DNA of 64,000 nucleotides from Candidatus Uhrbacteria bacterium (GTDB lineage: Bacteria > Patescibacteriota > Patescibacteriia > JACPHY01). The notes under the pieces were generated by a model. It saw nothing but the letters and a program-made list of their open reading frames with translations, had not been told where the DNA came from and made no database searches. Numbering within the stretch: position 1 is the stretch's first letter; the number at the start of each line of letters is the position of its first letter. The stretch spans positions 2,345 to 66,344 of the forward strand of contig JACPHY010000016.1 in the NCBI GenBank assembly GCA_016188355.1, in the 5' to 3' direction. Below, one piece after another: positions 22,624 to 43,900 of the stretch. The translations under genes and the position numbers were made by a program.

Positions 22624-24840
22624 TTAGAGTCCGAACAGCTTTTCAAGGTCGCTTGCCCCGGAATTTCCGCTCTGTTTGCGGAATGTATCAAAGGCGTCGA
22701 GCTTGAGTCCTGTTGATGCACTCGAGCTTCCGAATGCGCTCGATGACTTTTGCCCGCGCGCTTCTTGAAGCGCGTTGTTGAGCGAATTTCGAGCCTCGGA
22801 GAGCTGCTCAAATGCCTCCAGAAGTGCATCGGTGTCCACCGGCTTCTTCTTGGCGAGGCCCTGAATCTGGGCGAGCACGATCTTCCCATCGCTGAGCGCT
22901 GCCTCGAGCGACTTTACGTCCACGCGTTTGCGCTTCAGGGTCGTGATCTCGCGCTGGATTTTCGAGACCTCCTTGGTCGCATCGGAAATACCGCGACCCA
23001 TGTCGGTCACCGATCGGATCGCTTCAATTTTTTCACGGATGTCATCGAAACTGTCCCGGAGTTCGAAGAGACGATCGAGCGACTCCTCACTGACCGATTT
23101 CATTGCTTCTGCGAGTGCGTTCTTGATTTCTCCGATGGATTTACCGGCAGCGTCGATTTCTTCGCTCACGTCGATCTTCGCACGAGTCGCTTGGCTGGTG
23201 ATTCGCTTGAGATCCGACTCCATGCGTCGGAGTTCGCTCGTGAGCTGTTTCGAGACGCGCGGGAATTCCTGGATGCGCTGACAGTGGTCCACGGTTTCTC
23301 GGACACGGTCACCTACGTCCGCGAATTCCGAGAAGTCCACATCCTGTACTTCTTCAACGTCGGTAGCAGATTGGACCTTCGTGAGCGAATCGCGCAGCAT
23401 CTGGAGTCCATCGGTTACCTCCTCTGGGACCTCCACCTTTGCTTTCGTGCAGATGGCTAGGGCGCTCGACATTCGCTTATATCCGGATTCCAGATCCTTC
23501 AATCGCTTCTTCGCCTCCTTCAGCATCTGCTCTTTCTGCTGTTTCTCCATTTCCTCGCCCATCTCGTCGTTGGGCTGCATCCGATCCGACGCGTCGCCCA
23601 TTTCCGGTCGACCAAGGGATTCGCTGCCGATGCCATCAGCAGAGCGGCGAGCGGGGGAGCATTTTTCTTGCACCATTCGGCGCTGTGCCTCACTGGGCCC
23701 GCTTCCACTGCGGAGTTGATCGACCTTGTCGCCGATGACGGAGCGGACGCAGGATTCGAACTCATTTGCCGCGGGGCGCATGTTTTGTGCCTCCCCACCG
23801 AATTTGTTGTTTTCATTGGGTCCAGAGAACGGCGCGCGAGCTCCTCCAAGGACTGAGGGGTCGTTATCGGGCATCCGTTTGGAATCCTGCATGCGCGTCG
23901 CATCCTCCATGGGAGGACCCTTCATCACTTCCCCGGGTCCCTGGGGGGCCTTTGGGGTGAGTCCCGATGGGTCGTTGCGGGTCATTCCATTGATGCCATT
24001 GGGGCCATTCACGCCGTTCATCCCATTCAAACCATTCATCCCGTTGATGCCGTTTAGTCCATTCATCCCATTCGGTGCGCCCGGAAAGTTCGTTCCCACA
24101 TTCGGCCCGGAGTTGGGATTGTTGAAATTATTTGGCTGGTTTCCACCGAAATTCGTATTGGGGCCACCCATTCCCCCAGGGGAATTCATGTTCCCGGATT
24201 TGAGCGGATCCTTGGAGTCACCGGAGCCGCCGGGGGGTTGTTGGCCGCCAAAGTTATTGCCACCCAATCCCGGCATGCCGCCGAAATTATTCCCTCCGGG
24301 CGTTCCACCGAAGTTTGGGCCACCGAAATTGCCTCCCGGATTTCCTGGATTCCCGCCAAAATTATTTCCGCCGGGATTGATTCCAGTGTTCCCTCCGCCG
24401 GGATTTCCCCCGAAATCACCTCCTCCGGGATTCCCACCGAACGATCCTCCTGGTGGCGGACCTCCGAACGATCCTCCTGGTGGCGGACCTCCGGGCGAAC
24501 CGCCTGGTGGCGGACCTCCTGGGGGTGGACCTCCTGGGGAGCCGCCGCCTGGCGGGGGTCCTCCGGGGGGTGGACCTCCGGGATCCTCTGCGGCGCGGAA
24601 AGTGGCGCTGCCCGATTTCGACCATGATGCACGAAGTTCCGAGCATTCCTCCTGCTGATCCATGCAGAAAGAGGTGCACTCTGCCTCCGTGGTGCATTTG
24701 CCATCAAGATATGGAGGAACAATGAAATCTGCGGTGACGCGGTACTGATCGATGGAATTCGCCGCAATGATGGTTGCGGATGGGGCGAGTACCACGATGA
24801 GTCCCGCAGTAATGAGCTGCTTGCGGTAGGGAAACGCCAT
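22624..24840 (-). CDS. Large secreted/surface low-complexity protein (signal peptide, Cys-rich head, GGPPPGG and GxNGxNG repeat arrays, C-terminal coiled coil)
   Basis: 738-aa ORF with an N-terminal hydrophobic signal-like segment. About 250 aa of Gly/Pro/Asn repeats, then an alpha-helical C-terminal half. Confidence 0.7.
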   Translation of the reverse strand: MAFPYRKQLITAGLIVVLAPSATIIAANSIDQYRVTADFIVPPYLDGKCTTEAECTSFCMDQQEECSELRASWSKSGSATFRAAEDPGGPPPGGPPPGGGSPGGPPPGGPPPGGSPGGPPPGGSFGGPPPGGSFGGNPGGGDFGGNPGGGNTGINPGGNNFGGNPGNPGGNFGGPNFGGTPGGNNFGGMPGLGGNNFGGQQPPGGSGDSKDPLKSGNMNSPGGMGGPNTNFGGNQPNNFNNPNSGPNVGTNFPGAPNGMNGLNGINGMNGLNGMNGVNGPNGINGMTRNDPSGLTPKAPQGPGEVMKGPPMEDATRMQDSKRMPDNDPSVLGGARAPFSGPNENNKFGGEAQNMRPAANEFESCVRSVIGDKVDQLRSGSGPSEAQRRMVQEKCSPARRSADGIGSESLGRPEMGDASDRMQPNDEMGEEMEKQQKEQMLKEAKKRLKDLESGYKRMSSALAICTKAKVEVPEEVTDGLQMLRDSLTKVQSATDVEEVQDVDFSEFADVGDRVRETVDHCQRIQEFPRVSKQLTSELRRMESDLKRITSQATRAKIDVSEEIDAAGKSIGEIKNALAEAMKSVSEESLDRLFELRDSFDDIREKIEAIRSVTDMGRGISDATKEVSKIQREITTLKRKRVDVKSLEAALSDGKIVLAQIQGLAKKKPVDTDALLEAFEQLSEARNSLNNALQEARGQKSSSAFGSSSASTGLKLDAFDTFRKQSGNSGASDLEKLFGL
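24420..24600. repeat. Tandem 15/27-nt codon repeats (ggtggcggacctcc...) encoding the GGPPPGG array inside the large gene
   Basis: Direct near-identical DNA repeats visible at 24430-24590. A second NG-repeat array lies near 23990-24075. Confidence 0.5.
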
Positions 24841-24997
24841 AGGCGAAGGGGCGATGGATTATCGTAGGACCGTTGCGGTGTTCGGCCCTGTGCATCGGCG
24901 AGATATGCACAGCACCGTAGCGGTTCGTACGGTTAGGAGAAATAGTATATCACGCGCAAGTGGTGATTTGCTGTGCATTGCGCATGCTACACTGCGA

Positions 24998-25729
24998 ATG
25001 CAGATTCATCATGCTATGCCCACGAAGCTCTCTCCGTCATTTGCGACCGAGCAATTGCGTCGACCACTCGTTGCGACGGATATTGTGGTTTTTGCGATTC
25101 GTGATGGCGCGCTTTCCGTGGTATTGATCCGTCGGGCAATGCCGCCATTCGCGGGAAAGTGGGCATTGCCGGGTGGATTTGTATTGCCGGAGGAGACGGT
25201 GGACCGTGCTGCGCAGCGCGAATTGCGCGAGGAAACTGATGTGCAGATTGCCGAGGGGTATCTCGAGCAGTTATATACCTTTGGCAATGTGCACCGTGAC
25301 CCGCGCGGTCGGGTCATTTCTGTGGCATATCTCGCGTTGATTCCGGGTGAGGCCGCAGTACCGCGTGGGGGTTCCGATGCCGCGGAGGCGCAGTGGTGGC
25401 CGATGGAACGGTTGCCGCCACTCGCTTTTGATCATGCGCAGATCATCGCGTACGCGGTGACGAGATTGCGGTACAAGCTCGAATACACGAACGTGTTGTA
25501 TGCAGCGCTGCCGAACCGTTTTTCGCTAACTGAGTTACAAGAAGCGTATGAGGCGGTGCTCGGTAAATCGCTGGATAAACGCAATTTTAGGAAGAAAATC
25601 GTTGCATTGGGTTTTGTGCAGCCGACCACACAGTACCGAAAGCCAGAGCAGGGGCGTCCTGCGCAATTGTGGCGTTTCACCAAACGAACGCCGGTGTCCG
25701 TAAAGACGTTTGTGACGAAGGCGGGATAG
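24998..25729 (+). CDS. NrtR-like Nudix hydrolase / regulator (Nudix domain plus C-terminal winged-helix-like domain)
   Basis: Nudix box GGFVLPEETVDRAAQRELREETDV. C-terminal region LYAALPNRFSLTELQEAYEAVLGKSLDKRNFRKK resembles the NrtR DNA-binding domain. Start could be 24998 or 25016. Confidence 0.7.
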   Translation: MQIHHAMPTKLSPSFATEQLRRPLVATDIVVFAIRDGALSVVLIRRAMPPFAGKWALPGGFVLPEETVDRAAQRELREETDVQIAEGYLEQLYTFGNVHRDPRGRVISVAYLALIPGEAAVPRGGSDAAEAQWWPMERLPPLAFDHAQIIAYAVTRLRYKLEYTNVLYAALPNRFSLTELQEAYEAVLGKSLDKRNFRKKIVALGFVQPTTQYRKPEQGRPAQLWRFTKRTPVSVKTFVTKAG

Positions 25730-25760
25730 GTTGCGGTGGGGCACAGAAGATGGTGTGGGC

Positions 25761-25790
25761 TTGACACTAAATTAGTGTTTGTTTTACAAT
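25761..25790 (+). promoter_or_regulatory. Near-consensus promoter TTGACA-N18-TACAAT upstream of the SPFH gene
   Basis: Both hexamers read directly in an AT-rich 230-bp intergenic region. Confidence 0.5.
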
Positions 25791-25850
25791 AATTACGAAG
25801 CTGCGATGCGGATGGAGTATGGTACGGACGGGAAGTGGTGGCGAAGCTGT

Positions 25851-25879
25851 TTAATTAGTGTGATAATTACACATTCAAG
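25851..25879. promoter_or_regulatory. Candidate operator ttaattagtgtgataattacaca (AATTAGTGT word also at 25771-25779 and a variant upstream of pncB)
   Basis: Repeated word AATTAGTGT plus near-palindrome TGTGATAATTACACA between the promoter and the SPFH start. Confidence 0.25.
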
Positions 25880-25964
25880 CAAGTGGAGGAGACGGGGGAT
25901 GCGCGTCCATTTGCTCGAGCGTGTGATGGACACACGCCGTTCCTTGGACAATGGAGGATGAGTC

Positions 25965-26849
25965 ATGCGACTACCGTTCACGTGGTACCGGGCAACGCCG
26001 GCAGAGTACGTCGTGAAGTTCGTGAATGGCGCGCGTCGCGCCGAAGGGAAGGGGAAGATCTTCTTCGTGGGGCCTCGCACGACCCTTGCGAGGGTGATGG
26101 CGACGGAATTCGGCATTGGGTATGCGTTCACCGAACGCACGGCCGATGGCCAGGAAGTCGTCGTGCATGGAGAAGTCGTCGTGCGGTTCGATGTGCAGAA
26201 GATGCTCGATCGGCATGACTTCTCGTTCGATCCGCGATCGGGTGTGGGCGAGGGGAGCGAAGACGTGGTGGAGAGTGAGGTGCAGGCCGTACTCCAGACG
26301 TATGTTCGTCGCGAGATCGCGACGAAGAAACTGAAGGATGCGCTTGCATCTGCGGCGGCGCTCCAGGCGACCGTGGCAGAGATGATCAAGAACGACAGCG
26401 CCGCATTCGACGCGTTGGGCGTCGGTGTGTGCAACCTCTTCGTGACGAACGTGTCGCCGGCGAATCTTGACCTCAAGAAGGCGCTCGAGGCCGAAGCGCG
26501 TGAGCAGATGCTCGCGGCGGCGGATCGTGCGCTTGCCGATCGACGCATGGATGCCGCGAGGAACGATCGTTCGCTCAAGGAGTTCGAATCCGATACGGCC
26601 ATGACGCTCGAGCAGCGGCGCGCGGCACTTGTCGAGGCGCGGAACAAGAACGTCGTGGCGGAAGCGGAGGCAGATGCAGAGGCGAATCGGAAGCGTCTCG
26701 AACCGTACGCGCATGTGGATCCGCGGATGGTGTTTGCGCTCGGCATTCGGGAGCTTGGCGCGAACGGTCGGATCGGGCAGTTCAACGTGACGCCGGAGTT
26801 TCTGGCGGCCATGCAGGGTGCGTCGAACGGCCGTATGCCGGGAGCGTGA
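25965..26849 (+). CDS. SPFH/band-7 domain protein without obvious TM anchor
   Basis: GGAGGA RBS. SPFH-like core followed by an E/A-rich helical tail; translationally coupled to the next gene (3-nt gap, GGGAG RBS). Confidence 0.6.
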   Translation: MRLPFTWYRATPAEYVVKFVNGARRAEGKGKIFFVGPRTTLARVMATEFGIGYAFTERTADGQEVVVHGEVVVRFDVQKMLDRHDFSFDPRSGVGEGSEDVVESEVQAVLQTYVRREIATKKLKDALASAAALQATVAEMIKNDSAAFDALGVGVCNLFVTNVSPANLDLKKALEAEAREQMLAAADRALADRRMDAARNDRSLKEFESDTAMTLEQRRAALVEARNKNVVAEAEADAEANRKRLEPYAHVDPRMVFALGIRELGANGRIGQFNVTPEFLAAMQGASNGRMPGA

Positions 26850-26852
26850 GCC

Positions 26853-27836
26853 GTGCCGACGCCCATCGAACGTGTGGTGCTCGTGACGAAGTCGTCGCGG
26901 CTGGCGGAGCTCCTCGATCGATATTGTGGTCGTGATCGGGTCCGGTTCGTGATCGAATCCCGTGGAGAGTCCTTTGCCGAGTATGAGGCAGAGGACGACC
27001 GATGGCGCATGGCAACGGACCGATTGCGGGCTGCCATCCCGCGGGAGATTGCGCATACGGTCATTTCCCGTGCCTACATCCCCACCGAGCTCTTCCGGCC
27101 CACGGATCTCGTGATGACGATCGGACCCGACGGACTCGTCGCGAATGCGGCGAAGTATCTCGACGGTCCGCCGATTCTCGCGGTGAATCCCGACCCAGAT
27201 CGGATCGATGGTACGATTGCGCGGTTCTCCCCGGATGCAGCGATCGCTGTGTTGCCGCGGCTGCTCCGCGGGCAGTATCGTACGGATCCGTTGACCATCG
27301 CGATGGCGACCACGAACGATGGACAGGTTGCCTATGCGGCGAACGATTTTCTCGTCGGTCGACGAGACACCGTTTCTGCACGGTATCGGCTCGGAGTAGG
27401 GAATGGACCGGATGTGGTTGCGTCCGAGCGACAATCCTCGAGCGGCGTTCTGGTGACGACTGGTCTCGGCTCCACTGCATGGGCAACGTCGATCGTATCG
27501 AGCGCATTTGCGATTGCCGCTGTCATGGTGGGATTCGGGACCGGAGAAGACCTCCGCGGAGAATTGCGCGTGCAGCAGGAATTTGAGGTTCCGTATCCCT
27601 GGAGTGCGCGTCATCTCCTCTTCTTTGTCCGCGAGGCATTCCCGACGCGTTCCACGAGCGCCCGACAGTGCTTCGGCCGCATCGAGGAAACAGGCGTGCT
27701 CGTGATCACCTCCGAAATGCCCGATGGGGGAGCGATATTCTCCGACGGCGTCGTCGAGGACGCGCTCCCATTCCTCGCCGGTACCACGGTCACGATCCGT
27801 CCGGCCGATCGTGTCGCGCAGCTCATTCGTCCCTGA
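26853..27836 (+). CDS. NAD-kinase-fold protein (divergent, GPDG instead of GGDG; non-canonical paralog of nadK)
   Basis: DLVMTIGPDGLV... and NDFLVGRR...VLVTTGLGSTAWATSI align to the NadK GGDG and NE/D...TPTGSTAYS segments; GTG start. Confidence 0.55.
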   Translation: MPTPIERVVLVTKSSRLAELLDRYCGRDRVRFVIESRGESFAEYEAEDDRWRMATDRLRAAIPREIAHTVISRAYIPTELFRPTDLVMTIGPDGLVANAAKYLDGPPILAVNPDPDRIDGTIARFSPDAAIAVLPRLLRGQYRTDPLTIAMATTNDGQVAYAANDFLVGRRDTVSARYRLGVGNGPDVVASERQSSSGVLVTTGLGSTAWATSIVSSAFAIAAVMVGFGTGEDLRGELRVQQEFEVPYPWSARHLLFFVREAFPTRSTSARQCFGRIEETGVLVITSEMPDGGAIFSDGVVEDALPFLAGTTVTIRPADRVAQLIRP

Positions 27837-27847
27837 TCCCTCATTTG

Positions 27848-27868
27848 AGCCCGATCCCAGCGATCGGG
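27848..27868 (+). terminator. Weak hairpin after the NAD-kinase-like gene (gcccgatc...gatcgggc), followed by a second palindrome
   Basis: 8-bp stem, no clear U-tract; factor-independent termination uncertain. Confidence 0.3.
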
Positions 27869-27966
27869 CGTCCTCTCGGGATCCGTACGGAATCGTACGG
27901 AGTCCGAGATGGTGGACATGAAAATACTATTGAACCCAGCGACAAAAACGTTCATGTTTCCAGGAC

Positions 27967-27995
27967 TTGACGTAATTGGTTTTTCTGTGTAGGTT
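27967..27995 (+). promoter_or_regulatory. Putative promoter TTGACG-N17-TAGGTT upstream of the PP2C-kinase pair
   Basis: Located in an AT-rich 320-bp intergenic region, about 200 nt upstream of the PP2C start. Confidence 0.35.
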
Positions 27996-28192
27996 TGGCG
28001 TATCTATCAGAAAAATAAGCGATTTTGTACATGGTGGCGGTGCTTCATGGGTAGCGATGCTACGGAGTGCTCACGTGAACGGGTGATGCGGGGCATCGTC
28101 TTTTCGGGTGAGCATTCAACGATCGTTGATTCACAATGTATCAATTACTGTAACTGCTCGTGGGTGTTGCTCACGAGGAGAGGGGAGGGTAC

Positions 28193-29095
28193 ATGCGAGA
28201 TCAGTTCGCGGTCGCGGGCGGCTCCATCGCCGGTCGCGACCACACGCGCGCGGGCAGAAATAATCATGATGCGTTCTCCTGGATTCAAGATCCGGACTGG
28301 ACTATCGCATTCGTCGCGGATGGCTGTGGTGGTGCGGATGACAAAGTGCCGATGGATGTACGCGTCCGGCACGGCGCGGGTCCGCATAGTGAGGTGGGCG
28401 CGAAGCTTGGGGTGCGTCTGGTTGCAGAGTCCGTCCGCCGAAGTTTGCGGCGATTCGCCGAGCATCCGATTGCAGCGACCGGCGTGTTGCCGGAGCACGA
28501 TTCCTTCTGGGAGCGGATTCGTCAGGATGTGCTCGCCGGTCTCCGTGTATTGGCGCTCCAGATGGGCGACAGCCTTTCCGAGGTGGTGAACGAGTATTTC
28601 CTCTTCACCCTCGTTGGAGCGGTGATCACGAAATGGGGAACGTCGATCGTTTCATTGGGCGATGGCATTTATGGGTGCAACGGCAACGTACGCGTCCTGG
28701 GTCCATATCCCGATAATGAGCCACCGTACCTCGCGTACGGTCTCGTGCCGACCTCCCTCGCAAATACAGATCCGCGGCTCCTGAAATTCGTGGTGCATGA
28801 AATGCTATCGACGGATCAGGTGCATTCGATTCTCCTGGGTACCGACGGCGGCAAGGATCTGCAGGAAGCCGCTGGCCGTTGTATTCCTGGCAGTGCAGAG
28901 CTCGTCGGTCCTTTGGATCAATTCTGGATGAACGATCTCTACTTCCGAAATCCGGACGCGCTGCGCCGTCGACTGGCGGTGATCAACCGTGATCGGAGTG
29001 TTCAGGGTGACGGTGGCGGTACGCAGAATGCTGCCGGCCTACTCCCGGACGATACGACGCTCATTGCCATCCGGAGACGATCCGGAGGTGCGTGA
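28193..29095 (+). CDS. PP2C-family Ser/Thr protein phosphatase
   Basis: GGGGAGGG RBS before MRDQFAVAGGS. PP2C motifs DGCGG, LGDGIYGCNGN, DDTTLIAIRR. Stop overlaps the kinase ATG (TGATG). Confidence 0.8.
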   Translation: MRDQFAVAGGSIAGRDHTRAGRNNHDAFSWIQDPDWTIAFVADGCGGADDKVPMDVRVRHGAGPHSEVGAKLGVRLVAESVRRSLRRFAEHPIAATGVLPEHDSFWERIRQDVLAGLRVLALQMGDSLSEVVNEYFLFTLVGAVITKWGTSIVSLGDGIYGCNGNVRVLGPYPDNEPPYLAYGLVPTSLANTDPRLLKFVVHEMLSTDQVHSILLGTDGGKDLQEAAGRCIPGSAELVGPLDQFWMNDLYFRNPDALRRRLAVINRDRSVQGDGGGTQNAAGLLPDDTTLIAIRRRSGGA

Positions 29096-30990
29096 TGGAC
29101 GTGTTCATCGATGGAAAGAAGTTTCGTGTTTCGCCGAAGCAGGCGATTGGAAAGGGCGGAGAGGCGGACGTCTACAATCTCGGTGATGGGCGGGCGCTGA
29201 AGATCTTCAAGCCGCCGACGCATCCCGATTATGCGGACATACCGGATCGCGGAGAGCGCGAACGGGAAATGTGTGGCGCGCGAGATCGGATCGCGCTCCA
29301 TCAGGAGAAGCTCCCCGCGTTTCCCAGAGACCTCCCGGATCACGTCGTGGTGCCCGCGGATCTGGCCATGGATGCAGGAGGATCATCAATCGTTGGGTAC
29401 GCGATGCCGCTCCTCACCGGTGCGGAAACGTTCTGGAAATACGGGCATCGCGGAGAGCGACCGGCGGGTATCACGAACGAGCACGTGCAGAGCATCCTTC
29501 GGAATCTCCATCGGACCGTGCAGGGATGCCATGCGAAGCAGGTGGTCATTGGCGACTTCAACGACCTCAATGTGTTGGTGGTCGGGGAGGAGCCCTACCT
29601 CATCGATGTGGACAGCTTCCAGTTCGGGAAGTATCTCTGCCGGGCATTCACGGTGCGCTTTGTGGATCCGCTCCGGTGTGATCCGCATGCATCGAGTTTG
29701 CTCCTGGCGCAGCCGCACACTCCCGATTCGGACTGGTACGCGTTCACTGTGATGCTCATGCGGAGCCTGCTCTTCGTGGAGCCGTACGGTGGGGTGTTCA
29801 AACCGAAGGATCGCACGAAGTTGGTGCCTCATGATGCGCGGCCTCAGCATCGTATTACGATCTTCCATCCCGAGGTGATTTGTCCCAAGGTGGCCATTCC
29901 GTATGGAAGACTTCCAGACGATCTCCTCCATCACCTGCAGCAGGTGTTCGAGAAGGATCTCCGTGGGGTGTTCCCGATGCAGCTGCTCGAGAGCATGCGT
30001 TGGACGACCTGCGCGCAGTGCCAGACGGAGCATGCGCGAGCGCTTTGTCCGAATTGCCAGCATGCGGCTCCGGCGGCGATTCGGGAGGTGACCGTGATTC
30101 GTGGCCAGGTGACCGCGACGCGGATTTTCCGCACGCATGGTCGAATCTGTCAGGCGGCGATGCAGGATGGTGCGTTGTGTTGGTTGTATCATGAGGACCA
30201 CGCATTTCGTCGGGAAGATGGCGCGTTGGTGATTTCCGGCGGCATGGATCCCAAGTTTCGCTACCGTCTCCAGGGTCGCGCGACGCTCATCGCCCGCGAT
30301 GATCAGCTCGCGACGATTTCGCCGCATGCGGGAACGCAACGACGGACCGTCGAACAATTCCAGGGTCGATTGCCCGTCTATGATACGAACGCGCGCCACG
30401 CCTACTGGCTGGAGGGTGGCACGATCTATCGGGACGGCGATCTCGCTCAGGAACGTATCGGCGATGTGTTGGCGGGACAGACGTTGTTTTGGGTGGGGCC
30501 GGCATTCGGGTTCGGGTTCTATCGAGCCGGCGAGCTCAATGTGGCGTTCGTCTTTGATGCAGAGCGTCGCGGTATCAATGATGCGGTATCATTGCCACGT
30601 TTCCACGGTCAGATCCTCGATGTCGCGACGACGTTCTCCAATGAGCGCTGCTGGTTCTTCGTTGCATACGAACACGGAGGGAAGACGGTGCATCGGTGCA
30701 CGGTGATCCGTCCGGATGGCGGCATCGAAGCAACCATGGAGGCGACGGCTGGGGAACCGGCGTGGTCGTGGCTCGGAACGATCCGTGGTCACGCGGCAAC
30801 GGGAAAGTTCCTCCTCGCGGCAACGGATGACGGTATCGTCCGCGTCGAAGTGCATCAGGGGCAGCTTGCGGCGACGAAGTCCTTTCCGGATACGGAGCCG
30901 TTTGTGGGGGCCGGTGACTTGCTCTTCGCGGGAAAAGACGGTCTCTACGTCGTGAGTCGCAGCGAGATCACGCGTCTCCAGATTCGCTAA
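29095..30990 (+). CDS. Ser/Thr protein-kinase-like protein with internal Zn ribbon (CAQC...CPNC) and C-terminal beta-rich domain
   Basis: Gly-rich loop IGKGGEADVY, lysine ALKIF, catalytic-loop-like VIGDFNDLNVLV, DFG-like IDVDSF. Confidence 0.7.
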   Translation: MDVFIDGKKFRVSPKQAIGKGGEADVYNLGDGRALKIFKPPTHPDYADIPDRGEREREMCGARDRIALHQEKLPAFPRDLPDHVVVPADLAMDAGGSSIVGYAMPLLTGAETFWKYGHRGERPAGITNEHVQSILRNLHRTVQGCHAKQVVIGDFNDLNVLVVGEEPYLIDVDSFQFGKYLCRAFTVRFVDPLRCDPHASSLLLAQPHTPDSDWYAFTVMLMRSLLFVEPYGGVFKPKDRTKLVPHDARPQHRITIFHPEVICPKVAIPYGRLPDDLLHHLQQVFEKDLRGVFPMQLLESMRWTTCAQCQTEHARALCPNCQHAAPAAIREVTVIRGQVTATRIFRTHGRICQAAMQDGALCWLYHEDHAFRREDGALVISGGMDPKFRYRLQGRATLIARDDQLATISPHAGTQRRTVEQFQGRLPVYDTNARHAYWLEGGTIYRDGDLAQERIGDVLAGQTLFWVGPAFGFGFYRAGELNVAFVFDAERRGINDAVSLPRFHGQILDVATTFSNERCWFFVAYEHGGKTVHRCTVIRPDGGIEATMEATAGEPAWSWLGTIRGHAATGKFLLAATDDGIVRVEVHQGQLAATKSFPDTEPFVGAGDLLFAGKDGLYVVSRSEITRLQIR

Positions 30991-31011: not shown

Positions 31012-31054
31012 AATTGCGGCAGCCCACAGCATCGGTATCTCCACTGCCGCAATT
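31012..31054. promoter_or_regulatory. 11-bp perfect inverted repeat aattgcggcag-N21-ctgccgcaatt directly upstream of the nicotinamidase-like gene
   Basis: Read directly; lies between the kinase stop (30990) and the AAGGAG RBS of the next gene. Confidence 0.3.
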
Positions 31055-31079
31055 ACGAGACAAGAAGAAGGAGTTCGCC

Positions 31080-32243
31080 ATGGGTAAGGCTCTTCCGTTC
31101 CCGAAATTCTACGATCCGCACAACGTCAGCGACTGGAATTACGCGCCGGATCTCCAGGAGGTGCTCCTGGAGGCGCAGGAATACGTACGGCGCAACGACA
31201 TCAAGCCGGCGTCCACCGCGAAGGTGCGGATCGGCGTTCTCGGCATCGACAACCAGAAGGACTTCTGCTATCCGCCGGACGCGCGGGTCGTCCGTGGCAA
31301 GCCGCGCGGCGGCACGCTCTACGTGGCGGGCCGGAGCGGCACTGGCGCGATCGATGACAGCCGGCGGTACACCGAGTTCCTCTACCGGAACGCGGCACAC
31401 ATCACGAACATCTGGGACACGATGGACACGCACTTCCTATATCAGTGCTTCTTCCCGACGTTCTGGCTCCTCGAGAACGGTCAGCATCCCAATCCCCATA
31501 CGCTGATCGACCTCAATGCGCACGAGCAGCTCGTGAACCTCGATCTCGCGGGCAAGGAGATCGGCGCGGTGCGGGTGAATCCCGCCATCATGTCGTGGCT
31601 CCTCCCCGGGGTGTCGCCGAGCGCGGCGTTCACCTGGGCGACGAAGCAGATGGAATTCTATGCGCGTCAGCTGAAGCTGCCGAAGGGGCAGTACTCGAAG
31701 ACCCCGTACACGCTGTATCTTTGGCCGTTCCACTGCATCCTCGGCGGTGACGGGCACGCGCTCGTGGGGAGCATCCAGGAGGCACGGATGTTCGTCGCGG
31801 CGGCGCGCGGCATCCAGTCGTATCGCGAGGTGAAGGGAGGGAACGAGTGGTCCGAGAACTACGGCATCATCAGTGCCGAAGTACTCGAACGCCATGACGG
31901 CAAGGGGCAGATCGCGCAGAAGAACGTCGCGTTCCTGAAGAAGCTCCTCGAGCATGACATCATCATCATCGGCGGTCAGGCGGCGAGCCACTGCGTGAAG
32001 AGCTCGATCGAGCAGATCCTCGACGGTATCGTCGCGCAGGATCCGAAGCTCGCGAAGAAGGTGTACATCCTCGAGGACTGCATGTCCGCAGTCACCGTGC
32101 CCGACGGGAAGGGCGGATTCGCGGCGGACTTCACGCCGCAGGCGGAAGCGGCGATCCTCGAGTTCAAGAAGGCGGGCATGCACGTCGTCCAGTCGACGGA
32201 TTCCATCGAGAGCTGGCCGGGCGTCGGATCGCTCGCGGCCTAA
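31080..32243 (+). CDS. Enlarged isochorismatase-family cysteine hydrolase, nicotinamidase (PncA)-like
   Basis: GIDNQKDFCYPP resembles the PncA DVQNDFC motif; catalytic-Cys segment IIIGGQAASHCVKSS. About 390 aa versus about 190 for canonical PncA. Confidence 0.6.
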   Translation: MGKALPFPKFYDPHNVSDWNYAPDLQEVLLEAQEYVRRNDIKPASTAKVRIGVLGIDNQKDFCYPPDARVVRGKPRGGTLYVAGRSGTGAIDDSRRYTEFLYRNAAHITNIWDTMDTHFLYQCFFPTFWLLENGQHPNPHTLIDLNAHEQLVNLDLAGKEIGAVRVNPAIMSWLLPGVSPSAAFTWATKQMEFYARQLKLPKGQYSKTPYTLYLWPFHCILGGDGHALVGSIQEARMFVAAARGIQSYREVKGGNEWSENYGIISAEVLERHDGKGQIAQKNVAFLKKLLEHDIIIIGGQAASHCVKSSIEQILDGIVAQDPKLAKKVYILEDCMSAVTVPDGKGGFAADFTPQAEAAILEFKKAGMHVVQSTDSIESWPGVGSLAA

Positions 32244-32326
32244 TCCACTTCGGAGGGGTCGCCGGTGGTGCTTTCGGGTGCCATTGGCGATCCTTTCGAA
32301 CCACCAAAACCAAAGGAGTATCTACC

Positions 32327-33127
32327 GTGGCGAATACGGGTTCTTCCCAGAACGTCAGTCAGCTCTTCCAGGCCGCGCAGCAGGAGGGCGACCTCTCGGC
32401 GCAGTCCGCGGCGATTCTGCTCGCGCCGGATATGGGTCTCCAGATTCAGGCCGGGCTCGGCGCGCAGATCGATGATGTCCAGGCGAGCGAGGTGTTTCTC
32501 GTGGCGCTGATGCCGGATGACTCTGGGTCGATCGCGTCTGCGAACAATGAGCAGACCGTTCGTGACGGACACAACCTCGTGATCGAGGCCCTGCGGGATT
32601 CGAAGCAGGGCGATGGCATCCGGGCGCACTGCCGATATCTGAACGGCAAAGTGCTCTACGCGTTCGGGTCGCTCGACGCGGCCGTGAAGATGGATGGTCG
32701 AAACTACCGCGCGGACCAGGGGACGCCGCTCTACGATCAGACGGTGGTGCTCCTCGGGACGGTACTCGCGGAGGCGAAGGCGTTCGAGGATGCGGGCGTT
32801 CCGGCACGGACCGCGACCCTCATCATCACCGATGGCGCCGATCTCCACTCGAGGAGGAAGGCGAAGGATGTGAAGGCGATCGTCGACGATATGCTCCGCA
32901 AGGAAATGCATATCGTCGCGGCCATGGGCATCGATGACGGTGGCGGCACGGACTTCCGCAGGGTGTTCCGCGACATGGGCATCCGCGACGAGTGGATCCT
33001 CACGCCGGGCAACTCGGCGAGCGAGATTCGTCGGGCATTCTCGGTGTTCTCGCGGTCCGCGGTGCGTGCGTCGCAGTCCGCGGGCAGCTTCAGTCAGACG
33101 GCGGCCGGCGGTTTCGGCGCTCCGTAG
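32327..33127 (+). CDS. Small vWA-domain protein (TerY-like) with intact MIDAS
   Basis: DDSGS MIDAS, downstream Thr and TDGADL motif; GTG start with AAGGAG RBS. Confidence 0.7.
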   Translation: MANTGSSQNVSQLFQAAQQEGDLSAQSAAILLAPDMGLQIQAGLGAQIDDVQASEVFLVALMPDDSGSIASANNEQTVRDGHNLVIEALRDSKQGDGIRAHCRYLNGKVLYAFGSLDAAVKMDGRNYRADQGTPLYDQTVVLLGTVLAEAKAFEDAGVPARTATLIITDGADLHSRRKAKDVKAIVDDMLRKEMHIVAAMGIDDGGGTDFRRVFRDMGIRDEWILTPGNSASEIRRAFSVFSRSAVRASQSAGSFSQTAAGGFGAP

Positions 33128-33185
33128 CTGATCATCGGTACGCAGTTCCTTCTGACCGGTCCCACCATGCGTGGGGCCGGTCGTT

Positions 33186-33376
33186 CTTTTCACAAGGGAC
33201 TTCGTCCTCGGTGCGACCCCTGCCTCGCCACGGCGCAGGAGCCGGGCAAAGCCCTTCTCCTCCTGCTTGGGCTCGGCATGCCCTCTTTTCACAAGGGACC
33301 TCGTCCTCGGTGCGACCCCTGCCTTGCCATGGCGCAGGAGCCGGGCAAAGCCCTTCTCCTCCTGCTTGGGCTCGGC
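33186..33376. repeat. Two tandem 99-bp direct repeats (about 95% identical), each containing a nested stem-loop gcaggag-cc-gggc-aaa-gccc-ttct-ctcctgc
   Basis: Copies start at 33186 and 33285 with identical cores. Located between the vWA stop and a shared terminator; a third diverged copy is at 836-900. Confidence 0.7.
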
Positions 33377-33446: not shown

Positions 33447-35012
33447 TCAGGTGTCGGTGCCGCGATTGCCGCCGCCGAGGAGTTTCCCGAGGCGCTCGAT
33501 CACACTCGGCCGGCGTCGCAGTTCGGCGGTATTGCTCACTCGGAGCCGATCGCCGTCGATGATGATGTGGTTCGGATCCACGCCCGCCTGCCGCACTGCC
33601 TCGAAGTCTTTTATTTTGAGATCTCCGAGGATCGTCATGTCATCGAATGCCTGCTGCTGCTGGGCGGACGGCATGCCGAGCGACGTGTAGTCGGACCGAC
33701 CGCCGCCATAGCCCGACATGTACGTCCGTCCTGCATCCCGGAGGTGTCCCGCCTGCTCCGCGAATCGCTGTCGGTCTCCGAGGTCACTGCCGATCCGTTC
33801 GAGTTCGGCAACTCGTTCCTTTGCTTCCGGGAGATCGATGCGCTTCAGCTCCTCTCGAATGGCGAGGATGCGCTGCGCTGCGTCCGTGAATCGACTATCC
33901 CGTGCGTACCGCCACGCATCCTGAATGGCGATGCCGGCCGCGATCTGGAGTCGATCGAGCTCGATCTGCGGATCCGGTCGTTGCTCGGCGTCACTGGGTG
34001 CCACGTATCGGAATCGCGCCTCGCTCGAGATGTCGAACGGCGTGCCGTCCACCCGTTGACCGGTCACTCGAACCGTCGCTGCGGACGTCGCACGCGGGAA
34101 GACTTTGTCGACGGACGGAATCTGGAGTTCCGCCGTCACGGATGCCGGCTTTCCGTCGTACAGGTTGCCGATGGCCAGCGTGACGTCGTTGCCGTTTTGT
34201 CCCGCTGCAATGATCGGCACGTTCTCCAGGACGACGACGTGGAACGGATCATGTGCGGTGATGCGGACGCGCACGTTCGTCGCGGTGAGACTGCGGAGGA
34301 ACCCGAGCTCCATCGCGAACGCGTGGATGAGCGCATCTGCTCCCTCTGCGTGGTACGAGACGCCGCCACTCAGCGTTGCGATTGCCTCGAGCAGTTCCGG
34401 GTCGTATCCATCGGCACCGGCCGCATGACCGACTGGACCGAATCCGAACGTCGCGATGGGCACATCACTCATCGCGGCTCGTCGGCGTTCCCGAATTGCC
34501 GCGCAGATGTTGTCGTGCCCCGTAATGCCGACGGTCGGCACGCCATCCGTGAAGAGGATGATGCGTTGCGTGCGGAGCTGGTCTTCGGGCTGTGTCTCCT
34601 CCGCGAGCATCGTGATCGCTTCGCCTACACCGTCGACGAGGTTCGTGCTCCCATGCGCACCGATGCGTCGGATGCTCTGCTCGAGCATGGCACGCTTCGT
34701 CCGCAGGGTACCGATCGGCGTGAGCACGTGCGCGCTGTCCGAGAATGCGACGAGCCCGACGCGATCGTGGTCATCGAGCTGGAGCAGGAATCGGAACATG
34801 GCCTCTCGCGCGGCGTCGCGTTTGGTGGGACTACCGTGGCGATGATCCGTGGCCTCGCACATGGAGGATGATGTATCCGCGACGAGGACGATGTCCTTCG
34901 GCATCGGCTGCATCGCATGCGGCATGGGTCCGGCGACGCGCACGACGAGGTGTGTGGGTTCCGGATGGCGATGGTTGATTTTCTGTCGGGTCAATCGGAC
35001 GCTGACGTCCAT
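33447..35012 (-). CDS. Large vWA-domain protein with long C-terminal helical extension
   Basis: MIDAS DTSSSM, then T and LFTDG. GAGGAG RBS 7 nt before the internal ATG (MDVSVRLTRQ), so the start is placed at 35012, not the ORF-track 35078. Confidence 0.7.
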   Translation of the reverse strand: MDVSVRLTRQKINHRHPEPTHLVVRVAGPMPHAMQPMPKDIVLVADTSSSMCEATDHRHGSPTKRDAAREAMFRFLLQLDDHDRVGLVAFSDSAHVLTPIGTLRTKRAMLEQSIRRIGAHGSTNLVDGVGEAITMLAEETQPEDQLRTQRIILFTDGVPTVGITGHDNICAAIRERRRAAMSDVPIATFGFGPVGHAAGADGYDPELLEAIATLSGGVSYHAEGADALIHAFAMELGFLRSLTATNVRVRITAHDPFHVVVLENVPIIAAGQNGNDVTLAIGNLYDGKPASVTAELQIPSVDKVFPRATSAATVRVTGQRVDGTPFDISSEARFRYVAPSDAEQRPDPQIELDRLQIAAGIAIQDAWRYARDSRFTDAAQRILAIREELKRIDLPEAKERVAELERIGSDLGDRQRFAEQAGHLRDAGRTYMSGYGGGRSDYTSLGMPSAQQQQAFDDMTILGDLKIKDFEAVRQAGVDPNHIIIDGDRLRVSNTAELRRRPSVIERLGKLLGGGNRGTDT

Positions 35013-35347
35013 GGCAATTCTCCTCTGCTGGTTGGGTTGCGGATAGTCGATGCGGAGTGAGGGATGTGTCACTCCCAAATCGACCGAGATCCCATCCCCA
35101 CACCCTCAGCCATACGCAGCGGCGGTCATCCCAATTCCGGAGATCCGGAAGCGGACGACCCAACGGTGTCGTACGGTGGAGCGATGTGCGTGAACTCCCC
35201 GATTGGGAAGGAGCACCAGGACGATACCATAGACGATCCGTCATGTCCAGGGCTTGACGCGGTGCGGAAGGATGGGTATACCAAGGCTGGGAGTCCTCCC
35301 AAGGAATTGCTGTCGGTGTCCCATACAGGGGCGCAGAGAGGAGCATC

Positions 35348-39352: not shown

Positions 39353-39374
39353 GCGCGCGGTAGGTGCGTATTCA

Positions 39375-41331: not shown

Positions 41332-42282
41332 GTGATGGAGGAAGTGCTGCGTGGGCAACCCATACGGGTGATCGGGTGCGTGGTATCGGCGCATGCGCAT
41401 GCACAGGTGCTTGCGGAGCGATTGCGCCGCATCTGGAATTCGGCGGATGCGTCGGGTTTGGGATGGGTAGATGGGGAATCGCCCAAGGAACTGGCCGCGG
41501 CAATGGCATCCGCGCAGTCCACCGCATCCATTCCCGTTTCGTGCATTGATGCGGTCTTCGTGGTGGGTGGCGATGGATTTCTCATGGAGACATACCACGC
41601 ATTCGATGGCACGGGTCTCCGGCCGCTCCTCATAGGATGGAATGCGGGGCATGTGGGATTTCTCATGAATGATGCGCCGCACGCTGATGATGCGCTGCAG
41701 GTGCAGCTGGCGAATTTCCGTAACGGCGTCTACACCACGGAACTCGCGTATCCGGTGTGTGCGCAGGTGCAGCTCCGGGATGGAACGGAGCGCACCATTC
41801 GGGCGTTCAATGAGATTACGCTCCGCGCATCCGGTCGCCAGGCGGTCCGACTGCATCGGTGGATCAATGGAGCGGATTTGGGAGTATTTGGCGGTGGCGG
41901 ATTCATTGTGGCGACCCCGCAGGGATCCACGGCGTTTGCAGGAGATGCGGGTGGTCCGCTAGTGGATCCCGCCGTTCCATCGCTCGTGCTGGTCCCAATG
42001 ACGACGCATCGTGCGCGTATTTTCGCGCAACTTCATAACGCGCTGGTGCTCTCGCCCCATTCGTCCATCCGTGTGGATGTGCTGGAACGGGACAAGCGAC
42101 CGATCGCGGTGGAAACGGAAACGGAGCAGATCACGGACGTGGATCGCGTCCTGATTACGAGCGCGTATCGGCACGGCCCATCGCAGGCGATCGCATTGGG
42201 GTATGCGTATGCCCCGGACGGTCGACGCTTTCCCGCGCGAGTCGCCAAGAAATTCATCGGGAGGATTCGGGAGCGGCACTAA
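41332..42282 (+). CDS. nadK: NAD kinase
   Basis: VVGGDGFLM GGDG motif and GGGFIVATPQGSTAFAGDAGGP; AAGGAGG RBS. Confidence 0.85.
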   Translation: MMEEVLRGQPIRVIGCVVSAHAHAQVLAERLRRIWNSADASGLGWVDGESPKELAAAMASAQSTASIPVSCIDAVFVVGGDGFLMETYHAFDGTGLRPLLIGWNAGHVGFLMNDAPHADDALQVQLANFRNGVYTTELAYPVCAQVQLRDGTERTIRAFNEITLRASGRQAVRLHRWINGADLGVFGGGGFIVATPQGSTAFAGDAGGPLVDPAVPSLVLVPMTTHRARIFAQLHNALVLSPHSSIRVDVLERDKRPIAVETETEQITDVDRVLITSAYRHGPSQAIALGYAYAPDGRRFPARVAKKFIGRIRERH

Positions 42283-42361: not shown

Positions 42362-42393
42362 AGTTAGTGTCAAATGCACAATAATTGTATACC
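42362..42393. promoter_or_regulatory. Candidate operator/promoter upstream of pncB containing agttagtgtcaa and cacaataattgtat
   Basis: Shares the TTAGTGT and ATAATT words with the 25771-25879 sites; preceded by TTGACG at 42354. Confidence 0.25.
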
Positions 42394-42601
42394 GGTTCCG
42401 GAATCGCTTTGATTGGGCATTTGGACATCCATTTGACGCTTTGGTGATTTCATGATAGGGTTTTGGGTCTGTAGAGGGAAATTGAGGTTCCGTGCGCTGG
42501 GCGCGCGCGGGTGCTCAGTGGCTCTCGATGGCTCTTTTGGATCGCAGGCAACAGACGGAAGCGCTGCGTGCAATGGCGCGTCAGCAGAAAGGAGCTTGGG
42601 A

Positions 42602-43900
42602 ATGCAATTTCTTCGATCACCGCATCCGCTCTTACGGCAGTTCGTGGTGGATGGACCGATCATCGAATCGCTGCTCGATGTCGACTTCTACACCTTCACG
42701 ATGCAGGCGTACATTCGGAGGTACCATCCCGGGACCCATGTGCGCTTTGGGCTTCGGAATCGCACGAAGATTCCGCTCGGGCGTTCCATCCGGGAAGGGG
42801 AGCTCCGTGAGCAGCTGGATCATGTCCGCTCGCTCCGCGCGACGCGGTCCGAATGCCATTACCTTGCGGGTACGTTCGAATACGGCCGGCGCATGTTCGA
42901 CGATGCGTACATCGACTGGTTCGCAAACCTGCAGCTGCCCGAGTACGATCTCGAGTATCTTCCGGATGGCCACATCCGCCTCGAGTTCGCGGGGGACTGG
43001 GAGGCGGCGCTGCATTGGGAGACCATCGGCATGCCCATCCTGACGCAGCTCTACTTCAAGAGCCTACTCAAGAACATGATGACGATCGAGTGTGATGCGG
43101 TCGTTGCGGAGGGCATCCGGCGTCTCCATGAGAAGATACAGATGGTCCAGCAGCGCTGCGCATCGGGGCGACCGTTCTCCTTCGCGGAGTTCGGCACCCG
43201 GCGCCGCGCGTTTCGTGACTGGCAGCGCTACACGGATGCCATGTTCGGGGAGAGCTTGCCGGGTCAGTATCTCGGTACCTCCAATACGTTGAACGCCATG
43301 CTCCTCGGGCAGCAGCCCATGGGCACGAATGCGCACCAGCTCCAGATGGTGGCGGTGGCGCTCGCATCTTCCGGGAGCGATGAGGACATGCGTGCCGCAT
43401 CGCGACAGGTGTACGAACGGTGGTGGGAGATGTTTGGGCATGGACTCTCAATTGCACTGCCGGATACGTACGGAACGCCTGCGGGTCTCGAAGACCTCGG
43501 TGCATCGGGGGCGGGGTACTGGAAGGGTACGCGTCAGGATTCGGGATCGCCTGAGCGGGACACTGACCGGAAGATCGCATGGTACCTATCGCACGACATT
43601 GATCCTCGGGAGAAGCTGCTCTTGTACTCCGATGGGCTCACCTTTCCGCGCGCGTTCGCAATCGACGACTACCGCGCCGGCGCAATCAAGAAATCGTTCG
43701 CGCTCGGGACGAATGCGACGAATGACTTCCCGGTTCCGTCCGCGCTCTCCATCGTCGTGAAGCCGCTCCGTGCGAACGTGTTCGGATGCGTGAAGCTCTC
43801 TGACAACCCCGCGAAGGCGCAGGGCGATGCCGAGCTCATCCAGCGATACTGTCGCGTCTTCCGGTACCAGGAGGGCGAACGGACAGAGTGCGTGTATTGA
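42602..43900 (+). CDS. pncB: Nicotinate phosphoribosyltransferase
   Basis: AAAGGAG RBS before MQFLRS. Motifs DVDFYTFTMQ, EFGTRR and LGTSN typical of PncB. Confidence 0.85.
   Translation: MQFLRSPHPLLRQFVVDGPIIESLLDVDFYTFTMQAYIRRYHPGTHVRFGLRNRTKIPLGRSIREGELREQLDHVRSLRATRSECHYLAGTFEYGRRMFDDAYIDWFANLQLPEYDLEYLPDGHIRLEFAGDWEAALHWETIGMPILTQLYFKSLLKNMMTIECDAVVAEGIRRLHEKIQMVQQRCASGRPFSFAEFGTRRRAFRDWQRYTDAMFGESLPGQYLGTSNTLNAMLLGQQPMGTNAHQLQMVAVALASSGSDEDMRAASRQVYERWWEMFGHGLSIALPDTYGTPAGLEDLGASGAGYWKGTRQDSGSPERDTDRKIAWYLSHDIDPREKLLLYSDGLTFPRAFAIDDYRAGAIKKSFALGTNATNDFPVPSALSIVVKPLRANVFGCVKLSDNPAKAQGDAELIQRYCRVFRYQEGERTECVY

Follow-up and report, generated by a model that had tools for sequence, protein, structure and literature searches.

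An SPFH protein encoded directly ahead of an NADK2-like kinase-fold protein in a conserved gene pair that appears to be under NrtR control

Results

A gene pair with features of an NrtR-controlled NAD kinase operon

The window, that is, the whole 64,000-nucleotide stretch of Candidatus Uhrbacteria DNA analysed here, carries two adjoining genes, the first for an SPFH/Band-7 protein and the second for an NAD kinase-fold protein that resembles human mitochondrial NADK2. The best explanation of the pair, in which our confidence is slightly better than even, is an NrtR-controlled NADK2-type NAD(H) kinase for which the SPFH protein is a dedicated scaffold, the two being induced by ADP-ribose. Judged from its sequence, the kinase is a separate family, distinct from ordinary NadKs and diacylglycerol kinases, and its adjacency to the SPFH gene is far beyond chance.

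The features of the locus are collected in Table 1. The TGA stop codon of the SPFH gene (26847-26849) is followed by gcc and then by the GTG start of the kinase gene, leaving 3 nt between the genes, and the GGGAG within the 3' end of the SPFH gene lies 8 nt from that GTG. These details agree with the first-pass annotation, as does the GPDG sequence of the kinase (residues 91-94, encoded by 27123-27134). The GTG start fits, since the kinase homologues in our alignment start 3-5 residues ahead of the conserved ERIVVVTK strand. The SPFH gene has GGAGG 8 nt 5' of its ATG. The bona fide NadK with GGDG that had been noted further downstream was likewise confirmed; it is a housekeeping paralogue outside the module. 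The PP2C and kinase-like genes and a 409-aa open reading frame located 3' of the kinase gene were rejected as parts of the module, because none of them is conserved in 80 related loci and because a gap of 324 nt follows the kinase gene.

Table 1 Positions of the features of the SPFH-kinase locus and of related features in the window.
Feature	Position	Strand	Evidence
nrtR-like gene (Nudix effector domain and NrtR winged-helix DNA-binding domain)	24854..25729	+	Pfam NrtR_WHD 6e-22, NUDIX 5e-21
NrtR-box-like 21-bp palindrome 1, ATGGTGTgggcttgACACTAA, overlapping the -35 hexamer	25750..25770	.	pattern match
Sigma-70-like promoter, TTGACA, 18-nt spacer, TACAAT, 11/12 matches	25761..25790	+	sequence
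NrtR-box-like palindrome 2, TTAGTGTttgttttACAATAA, overlapping the -10 hexamer, 22 bp from box 1	25772..25792	.	pattern match
NrtR-box-like palindrome 3, TTAGTGTgataattACACATT, downstream of the promoter	25855..25875	.	pattern match
SPFH/Band-7 gene, nrtX type, 294 aa	25965..26849	+	Pfam Band_7
GGGAG ribosome-binding site of the kinase gene, within the 3' end of the SPFH gene	26840..26844	+	sequence
NADK2-like kinase gene, nrtY type, 327 aa, GTG start	26853..27836	+	PDB sequence search, AF2, Foldseek
Canonical NadK with GGDG (context only)	41332..42282	+	Pfam NAD_kinase_C 1e-12
NrtR-box-like palindrome 4, TTAGTGTcaaatgcACAATAA, upstream of pncB, half-sites as in box 2	42364..42384	.	pattern match
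pncB (nicotinate phosphoribosyltransferase)	42452..43900	+	Pfam NAPRTase 2e-30, NAPRTase_N 3e-16

Conservation of the gene pair

An SPFH gene was found directly upstream of the kinase gene and on the same strand in all 80 related genome loci, which span Saccharibacteria, Planctomycetota, Verrucomicrobiota, Chloroflexota, Acidobacteriota, Firmicutes, Bacteroidota, and Proteobacteria. The intergenic gap had a median of 22 nt and was 30 nt or less in 52 of the loci, some pairs being overlapping. When two distant SPFH relatives were taken as the starting points, the same kinase again followed. The kinase family as a whole amounts to 550 or more clusters when grouped at 50% identity (E<=1e-30) and to 589 genome loci, and is present in organisms as different as CPR bacteria, Proteus, Bradyrhizobium, and Streptomyces.

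NrtR aside, each neighbouring gene family was limited to 10 of the 80 loci at most. A gene for an ADP-ribosylglycohydrolase lies immediately 3' of the pair in five loci, nadE is close to the pair in some, and the neighbours in Providencia and in one further locus (L086) are housekeeping or NAD-biosynthesis genes. One fusion of the SPFH protein and the kinase was also found (P0186, 574 aa). This protein was set aside because the SPFH tail and strand one of the kinase are lost at the junction, and we do not rely on it as Rosetta-stone evidence, since it may be an artefact.

The kinase-fold protein

The AlphaFold2 (AF2) model of the kinase had a pLDDT of 94.5, and together with a Foldseek search it predicts the two-domain NAD kinase fold. 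The top 50 matches to the model in the PDB were all NAD or NADH kinases, with E-values down to 2e-20, and the best of them were the NADK2 structures 7r4l and 7r4j (TM 0.74). Human NADK2 was the best PDB match at the sequence level too, at an identity of only about 19-21%. A profile of the family matched NADK2 at an E-value of 1e-21 versus about 1e-5 for canonical NadKs, and the kinase itself fell below the cut-offs of Pfam PF01513 (14.9 versus 25.5 bits) and of the NCBIfam NadK equivalogs (27 bits at best versus 309). It had been asked in the first-pass annotation whether this NadK-fold clade is distinct and consistently linked to SPFH proteins rather than grouping with housekeeping enzymes; the profile and threshold results set the clade apart, and the linkage holds in every locus compared as well as from the two distant SPFH starts, so that the idea of a separate, SPFH-linked clade stands.

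The family shares with canonical NadK/PpnK (PF01513, PF20143) the two-domain fold and the catalytic Asp, and its ND and STG-x-GST motifs are equivalent to the NE and TPTGSTAY motifs of those enzymes. In contrast to canonical NadK, it contains a long insert, scores below the curated thresholds, and coexists with a true NadK in the same genome. The resemblance to NADK2 (C5orf33; PDB 7n29, 7r4j-m) is more extensive. Both have the N-terminal strand VVV-x-K-x-T, which carries the diphosphate Lys, and a loop of the form N-x-D-P-x-R-x-x-G; the catalytic Asp and the Trp that stacks on nicotinamide are common to the two, as is an insert of two helices that has the same position and a similar length. 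The roles of K76, D161, H191, and W319 of NADK2 have been described (PMC9245612). Among 120 family sequences, the equivalent of the diphosphate-contacting K76 (K13) is Lys or Arg in 118, that of the catalytic D161 (D93) is kept in 119, and that of the nicotinamide-stacking W319 (W210) is kept in all; the ND and STGxGSTGW motifs are also invariant.

Two positions set the family against NADK2, which has GGDGT and the adenine-stacking His191. The family motif is G-x-D-G, where x is P, Q, I, V, A, or R and never Gly in the 120 sequences, and the position of His191 is occupied by Val, Ile, or Thr in the alignment. The GPDG variant emphasised in the first-pass annotation is thus present in this protein but is not family-wide, being typical only of its closest relatives; GQDG, GIDG, GVDG, GADG, and GRDG occur in the others. 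As for a loss of NAD-binding residues, which had been proposed as a check, most of these residues are retained: the Asp, the Lys/Arg, and the Trp are kept, whereas His191 is replaced and the second Gly of GGDG is absent. The missing Gly may bear on catalysis or on which phosphoryl donor is used, and because of the replacement of His191, the substrate may not be NAD. The family further differs from NADK2 in that it is bacterial, lacks a targeting peptide, has a gene that in every case follows one for an SPFH protein, and often appears to be controlled by NrtR.

The insert occupies residues 211-253, with helices modelled at 210-225 and 233-237. Its length across the family is 27-52 aa (median 36), and it aligns to the NADK2 insert, which lies between the helices flanking the Trp motif, measures 22-47 aa versus 3 residues in other NADKs, and has been reported as specific to animal NADK2 (PMC9245612). 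What had been read as a long C-terminal extension is therefore a misreading: in the NADK2 alignment and the model, the extra length consists of this internal insert and an N-terminal helical region, both common to NADK2. The modelled insert helix is hydrophobic, like the dimer interface of NADK2, which is suggestive only as to a dimer.

The SPFH protein

The upstream product matched Pfam Band_7 with 37.1 bits against a cut-off of 23.6. Its AF2 model (pLDDT 86) is composed of an SPFH domain (residues 1-165), a single helix of about 80 residues (168-248), and C-terminal helices. Full-length Foldseek matches of the model were HflK/C, stomatin, erlin, prohibitin, flotillin, QmcA, and the major vault protein, and all of the matched structures have been solved as large rings or cages. 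The predicted arrangement of SPFH domain, long helix, and C-terminal helical cap thus resembles that of HflK/C-FtsH, QmcA-YbbJ/NfeD, stomatin, prohibitin, flotillin, and vault.

Inspection of the sequence revealed no transmembrane or hydrophobic N-terminal segment, and an N-terminal anchor was likewise absent from 46 aligned SPFH homologues, all of which begin directly at the SPFH domain, at residue 1. Unlike membrane SPFH proteins, the protein therefore has no N-terminal transmembrane or hairpin anchor and is nearer the vault protein in that respect. It is encoded with a dedicated partner, as are HflK/C and QmcA, but the partner is a nucleotide kinase instead of a protease or an NfeD protein; no NfeD domain was found among the neighbours in the window and the 80 loci.

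NrtR, its candidate operators, and the nrtX-nrtY operon

The nrtR-like gene adjoins the pair in the window, as an nrtR gene does in 36 of the 80 loci. The NCBIfam entry 'ADPR responsive transcriptional repressor' matched its product at 1e-47, aligned from residue 63, and the true start is probably the in-frame ATG at 25016. According to PMC2330246, the NrtR operator is a 21-bp palindrome with a GT-N7-AC core, and NrtR comes off DNA in vitro in the presence of ADP-ribose or 2'-phospho-ADP-ribose.

A search with the pattern TTAGTGT-N7-ACACTAA (a 21-bp consensus derived from other loci, with up to 3 mismatches) gave four matches in the 64 kb, against 0.26 expected. Three of them are located in the 235-nt leader of the operon, where the first two overlap the hexamers of the predicted promoter, and the fourth lies 5' of pncB. 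No further promoter-like site was seen within 25650-28200. A 15-bp palindrome, TGTGATAATTACACA, was not significant as an operator on its own, and the 21-bp consensus was used instead. In 77 other loci, NrtR-type boxes were enriched 90-fold upstream of the SPFH genes, and the tandem spacing of 22-23 bp recurred in many of them. From these sequence patterns the pair appears to be under NrtR control, and pncB probably belongs to the same regulon. Such control may not be universal, since the single box consensus was matched in 30 of the 77 loci and an adjacent nrtR was present in fewer than half of the 80.

In Proteus mirabilis and Providencia, NrtR is divergent from the SPFH-kinase pair. Rodionov and coworkers listed in 2008 an operon 'nrtR<#>nrtX-nrtY' of unexplained function for Proteus mirabilis (PMC2330246, Table 1). 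The likeness extends to two genes adjoining or divergent from nrtR with 21-bp GT-N7-AC palindromes ahead of them, and by this analogy the SPFH-kinase operon is very probably nrtX-nrtY. The identification is drawn from the Proteus architecture, because the text of that paper gives neither protein families nor locus tags. In the literature searched, we found no later paper using the names nrtX and nrtY, no paper joining NrtR with an NAD kinase, or either of them with SPFH/band 7 proteins, and no report on the activity, binding, or expression of any family member.

Discussion

In the mechanism that we favour, NrtR in the resting state would occupy the tandem operators over the -35 and -10 hexamers. 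Consumption of NAD would cause ADP-ribose to build up and NrtR to leave the DNA, and the operon would then be expressed along with pncB. The nrtX product would act as a dedicated oligomeric SPFH scaffold that may bind, confine, or gate the kinase, and the nrtY product, an NADK2-type kinase and presumably a dimer, would phosphorylate NAD+ and/or NADH to NADP(H). As an outcome, the supply of NADP(H) would be secured while the NAD pool is low and under rebuilding. Since the genome already has a canonical NadK, we also have to infer that a second NAD kinase is needed.

The same operon and regulation could also serve a kinase that phosphorylates another NAD-derived molecule, such as ADP-ribose, NaAD, or a cyclic or other ADP-ribose derivative, in which case the module would process or signal NAD breakdown and not synthesise NADP. 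We consider this reading unlikely. It would suit the missing second Gly of GGDG and the missing adenine-stacking His, the predicted induction through an ADP-ribose sensor, the ADP-ribosylglycohydrolase genes directly 3' of the pair, and the presence of a canonical NadK. Against these points, the nicotinamide-stacking Trp is invariant, the catalytic Asp and the diphosphate Lys/Arg are kept, the fold neighbours are all NAD kinases, and with canonical NAD kinases no phosphorylation of ADP-ribose is evident (PMC8553519).

A more far-reaching form of the NAD(H) kinase reading is speculative, and we consider it rather improbable. NrtX would form a membrane-free, vault-like cage, with a dimeric NADK2-type kinase housed in it or gated by it, the whole working as an ADP-ribose-induced 'emergency' generator of NADP(H) when stress, toxins, or NADase immunity destroy NAD, and the family, in which the supposedly animal-specific insert is already present, would be the evolutionary source of mitochondrial NADK2.

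The first-pass annotation had pointed to membrane-associated conflict systems. Put as a mechanism, an SPFH assembly and a kinase would answer the depletion of NAD by phage, toxins, or NADase immunity, either by sheltering pyridine nucleotides as NADP or by triggering dormancy. NADase effectors yield ADP-ribose, the spread of the pair over phyla is patchy with neighbourhoods that vary save for NrtR, Ser/Thr kinases or PP2C are close by in the window and in six loci, and copies exist on plasmids and chromids. The plasmid copies were rejected as evidence of mobility: most are on Rhizobium chromids or mislabelled chromosomes, and those on small plasmids are truncated passengers beside tetR-tet(H). 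Moreover, no PADLOC family matched either protein at E<=0.01, PADLOC and PHROGs scans gave nothing relevant, and the kinase was not found by tblastn in 50,697 phage records; the neighbourhoods in the 80 loci contain no conserved effector of toxin-like or nuclease type. The absence of a membrane anchor, the NrtR-type operators, of which the sole one elsewhere in the window precedes pncB, and the housekeeping or NAD-biosynthesis neighbours, including nadE, argue in the same direction. The conflict proposal was consequently not retained as the main reading, and we regard it as quite improbable. Since its switch appears to be NrtR, the pair is better placed in NAD(P) homeostasis than among defence systems.

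The view that the kinase-fold protein is an inactive pseudo-enzyme, which would bind NAD(P) or ADP-ribose and control SPFH assembly as a ligand sensor, draws on the GGDG loop altered in every member and on scores below all curated NadK thresholds, but it is very improbable, since a nearly universal catalytic Asp and NADK active-site motifs that, as a full set, do not vary even between distantly related members are what one expects of a working enzyme.

The apparently NrtR-controlled NADK2-like kinase with its putative SPFH scaffold looks like a so far uncharacterised component of NAD(P) homeostasis. Published reviews attribute just one type of NAD kinase to bacteria and restrict the NADK2 insert to animal mitochondria; at the level of sequence and structure model, the kinase family contradicts both statements. 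The pairing very probably gives a protein-level identity to a widespread operon that was flagged as NrtR-regulated in 2008 and for which the literature searched contained no follow-up. The kinase family offers a tractable bacterial system for NADK2-type enzymes, and its partner, a rare anchor-less SPFH protein with a defined enzymatic counterpart, could reveal roles of SPFH cages beyond the organisation of membrane proteases.

Gene pair and its conservation

The reading frames described in the first-pass annotation were found in the window sequence as it had described them, including the 3-nt spacing, the GTG start, and the GGGAG and GPDG motifs. The SPFH gene ends with TGA, followed by gcc and the GTG of the kinase-fold gene; GGGAG lies at 26840-26844, the GTG 8 nt further on, and GPDG is encoded at 27123-27134. 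Both ORFs share one reading frame with only TGA and one codon between them, and read-through of this single stop would yield a fusion protein. A database protein, P0186, is a 574-aa SPFH-kinase fusion; since its junction lacks the SPFH tail and the first kinase strand, a deletion or an assembly error may account for it.

Features of the window relevant to the SPFH-kinase pair
Feature	Position	Strand	Remarks
738-aa protein	22624-24840	-	very long Gly/Pro/Asn-rich low-complexity region; GGPPPGG and GGNNFGG repeats
NrtR-type regulator gene	24854-25729		just upstream of SPFH gene; probable start 25016
Box 1 (predicted NrtR-type palindrome)	25750-25770		overlaps -35
Box 2 (predicted NrtR-type palindrome)	25772-25792		overlaps -10
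Promoter-like site			TTGACA-18-TACAAT; sole such site found; -35 and -10 overlapped by boxes 1 and 2
Box 3 (predicted NrtR-type palindrome)	25855-25875		3' of promoter-like site
SPFH ORF	25965-26849	+	294 aa; above Pfam Band_7 threshold
Kinase-fold ORF	26853-27836	+	GTG start at 26853; 327 aa
PP2C phosphatase gene	28160-29095	+	4-nt overlap with next gene
632-aa protein	29092-30990	+	weak protein-kinase core (LanL-like, MkoA, TCAD9 traces)
409-aa ORF	31014-32243	+	immediately 3' of kinase-like gene
vWA-domain protein gene	33447-35078	-	near PP2C and kinase-like genes
879-aa protein	35915-38554	+	N-terminal TPM (phosphatase-like) domain
Canonical NadK	41332-42282		GGDG present, as first annotated; pncB comes next
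Box 4 (predicted NrtR-type palindrome)	42364-42384		immediately upstream of pncB; half-sites identical to box 2

Of 589 loci detected by scanning species-representative genomes, the best 80 were analysed. These came from Saccharibacteria, Planctomycetota, Verrucomicrobiota, Chloroflexota, Abditibacteriota, Acidobacteriota, Lachnospiraceae, Paenibacillaceae, Flavobacteriia, and Alpha-, Beta-, and Gammaproteobacteria. When their ORFs were searched with an iterated HMM, a same-strand SPFH gene stood immediately 5' of the kinase gene in all 80 (median gap, 22 nt), and the same kinase also follows two distant SPFH relatives (~24% identity); the linkage whose conservation had been in question holds in all these loci. 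The SPFH-kinase pair is a real, strongly conserved module. When all neighbours were clustered, NrtR was the only other widely common one, adjoining the pair in 36 of the 80 loci (upstream, divergent, or immediately downstream). An ADP-ribosylglycohydrolase gene lay immediately 3' of the pair in five loci and a Ser/Thr kinase gene near it in six.

Kinase-fold and SPFH proteins

The kinase-fold protein matched Pfam NAD_kinase only at E 0.033 and scored ~27 bits against NCBIfam NadK models, whose cut-offs exceed 300. The closest solved structure by sequence was human mitochondrial NADK2 (E 3e-7, single-sequence query), and the family profile gave E 1e-21 for NADK2 versus ~1e-5 for canonical NadKs. 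NADK2 was also the best fold match (TM 0.74) of the AlphaFold model (pLDDT 94.5), the top 50 PDB matches otherwise being NAD or NADH kinases only. These scores and the constant SPFH linkage bear out the distinct clade proposed earlier.

An exhaustive profile search yielded 550 family clusters (50% identity) at E<=1e-30. A database search found >2,500 relatives, of which the best 120 were mostly ~300-345 aa, nearly all at >=98% query coverage, indicating that the length is a family feature. The presumed C-terminal extension proved, on alignment with NADK2, to be an internal insert between the Trp motif and the following strand, common to NADK2 and the bacterial family (27-52 aa in the latter). 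Du et al. (2022, PMC9245612) reported inserts of 22-47 aa in animal NADK2 versus 3 aa in every other NADK; they considered the insert restricted to metazoan mitochondria. A divergent subgroup (P0251 and P0301, ~500-560 aa) does carry a long C-terminal extension; by eye, that of P0251 appears to contain several hydrophobic, membrane-spanning-like segments, and such proteins could be membrane-tethered kinases.

Residues 91-94 are GPDG among close relatives and GQDG, GIDG, GVDG, GADG, or GRDG elsewhere; GGDG occurred in none of the 120 sequences. As to a possible loss of NAD-binding residues, most are retained: the diphosphate-binding Lys on the N-terminal strand (NADK2 K76, here K13; K or R in 118/120), the catalytic Asp (D161, here D93; 119/120), and the nicotinamide-stacking Trp (W319, here W210; 120/120), whereas the adenine-stacking His191 is replaced by V, I, or T.

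No hydrophobic N-terminal segment was found in the SPFH protein sequence, and all 46 aligned homologues begin straight at the SPFH domain. Its model (pLDDT 86) comprises this domain, a single 80-residue helix, and C-terminal helices, with full-length fold matches to HflK/C, stomatin, erlin, prohibitin, flotillin, QmcA, and major vault protein, each of them a ring- or cage-forming protein.

Predicted NrtR boxes and the probable nrtX-nrtY operon

The NrtR operator is a 21-bp palindrome with a GT-N7-AC core (PMC2330246). Scanning upstream regions of the loci for such palindromes gave the common consensus TTAGTGT-N7-ACACTAA, often in tandem, 22-23 bp apart. With <=3 mismatches allowed, the 64-kb window contained four boxes against 0.26 expected, a number reached by no shuffle; one precedes pncB, a classical NrtR target. 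Across 77 loci, the 300-nt regions 5' of SPFH genes held 2.18 boxes per kb, compared with 0.024 per kb elsewhere, and boxes also occurred at loci without an adjoining nrtR. The Nudix box of the window's NrtR-like protein is almost intact (G-x5-E-x7-REL-x-EE-x-D-V); judging from this sequence, the protein might retain ADP-ribose pyrophosphatase activity, unlike NrtR proteins characterised to date.

Rodionov et al. (2008, PMC2330246, Table 1) listed nrtX-nrtY as a two-gene operon under NrtR control, with no function assigned, in Streptomyces, Kineococcus, Frankia, Hahella, and Proteus mirabilis; the P. mirabilis entry reads 'nrtR<#>nrtX-nrtY'. On the P. mirabilis chromosome and a Providencia replicon, an NrtR-like gene diverges from the SPFH gene, followed by the NADK2-like kinase. 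By this arrangement, rather than by locus tag, the SPFH gene very probably corresponds to nrtX and its NADK2-like partner to nrtY. The pair's existence was noted in 2008; the literature searched contained no published function and no later paper using these names or joining NrtR, SPFH, and NAD kinase.

Other neighbours and mobile loci

The window's PP2C, kinase-like, and vWA genes are reminiscent of vWA, PP2C, and Ser/Thr-kinase triads; this set, like the 409-aa gene, was not conserved beside the pair in the 80 loci. The 632-aa protein has a zinc-ribbon-like CxxC...CxxC motif. The 409-aa ORF had no match in Pfam, NCBIfam, PADLOC, or PDB sequences; its stretch GGQAASHCV presumably resembles isochorismatase/nicotinamidase-type cysteine hydrolases. 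The 738-aa protein, with a coiled-coil-like C-terminal region, is probably secreted or displayed at the surface by this Candidatus Uhrbacteria (CPR) bacterium. ORFs 32240-33292, 35576-36916, 38624-39403, 39479-40366, and 40475-41269 had no Pfam match.

In P. mirabilis (4001-6849 of the locus), the pair immediately adjoins tetR-tet(J). A nearly identical kinase gene lies beside tetR-tet(H) on small mobilisable plasmids bearing tet(H), as well as on large plasmids of Moraxella and Acinetobacter; on pAST2 (6144-9610 of the locus), a short ORF (~200 aa) occupies the SPFH position. The pair seems to have travelled along with a tetracycline-resistance determinant.

Proposed role

ADP-ribose and 2'-phospho-ADP-ribose release NrtR from DNA in vitro, and ADP-ribose was proposed as a signal of NAD consumption (Rodionov et al., PMC2330246). 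The most economical reading is that NAD consumption would derepress the operon jointly with pncB, that NrtY would phosphorylate NAD(H), and that NrtX, judging from its fold, would be its dedicated oligomeric scaffold or gate. Because the Km of NADK2 for NAD is much lower than that of the cytosolic enzyme (PMC8553519), it is plausible by analogy that NrtY would serve as a second kinase, of high affinity, when NAD is scarce. Given the altered G-x-D-G loop and the loss of His191, NrtY could use another substrate or phosphoryl donor. That NrtY is a pseudo-enzyme is unlikely, because the active-site residues of the family are invariant. The conflict system hinted at in the first-pass annotation is improbable: PADLOC matched neither protein, 50,697 phage records held no kinase copy, no effector was conserved near the 80 loci, and the neighbours in Providencia and one further locus are housekeeping or NAD-biosynthesis genes. 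It is possible that the module matters during conflict once NAD is depleted.

On sequence evidence, the module's place would be in NrtR-controlled NAD homeostasis, not among known defence systems. It combines an NADK2-type kinase in bacteria with an anchor-less SPFH protein that has an enzyme partner.
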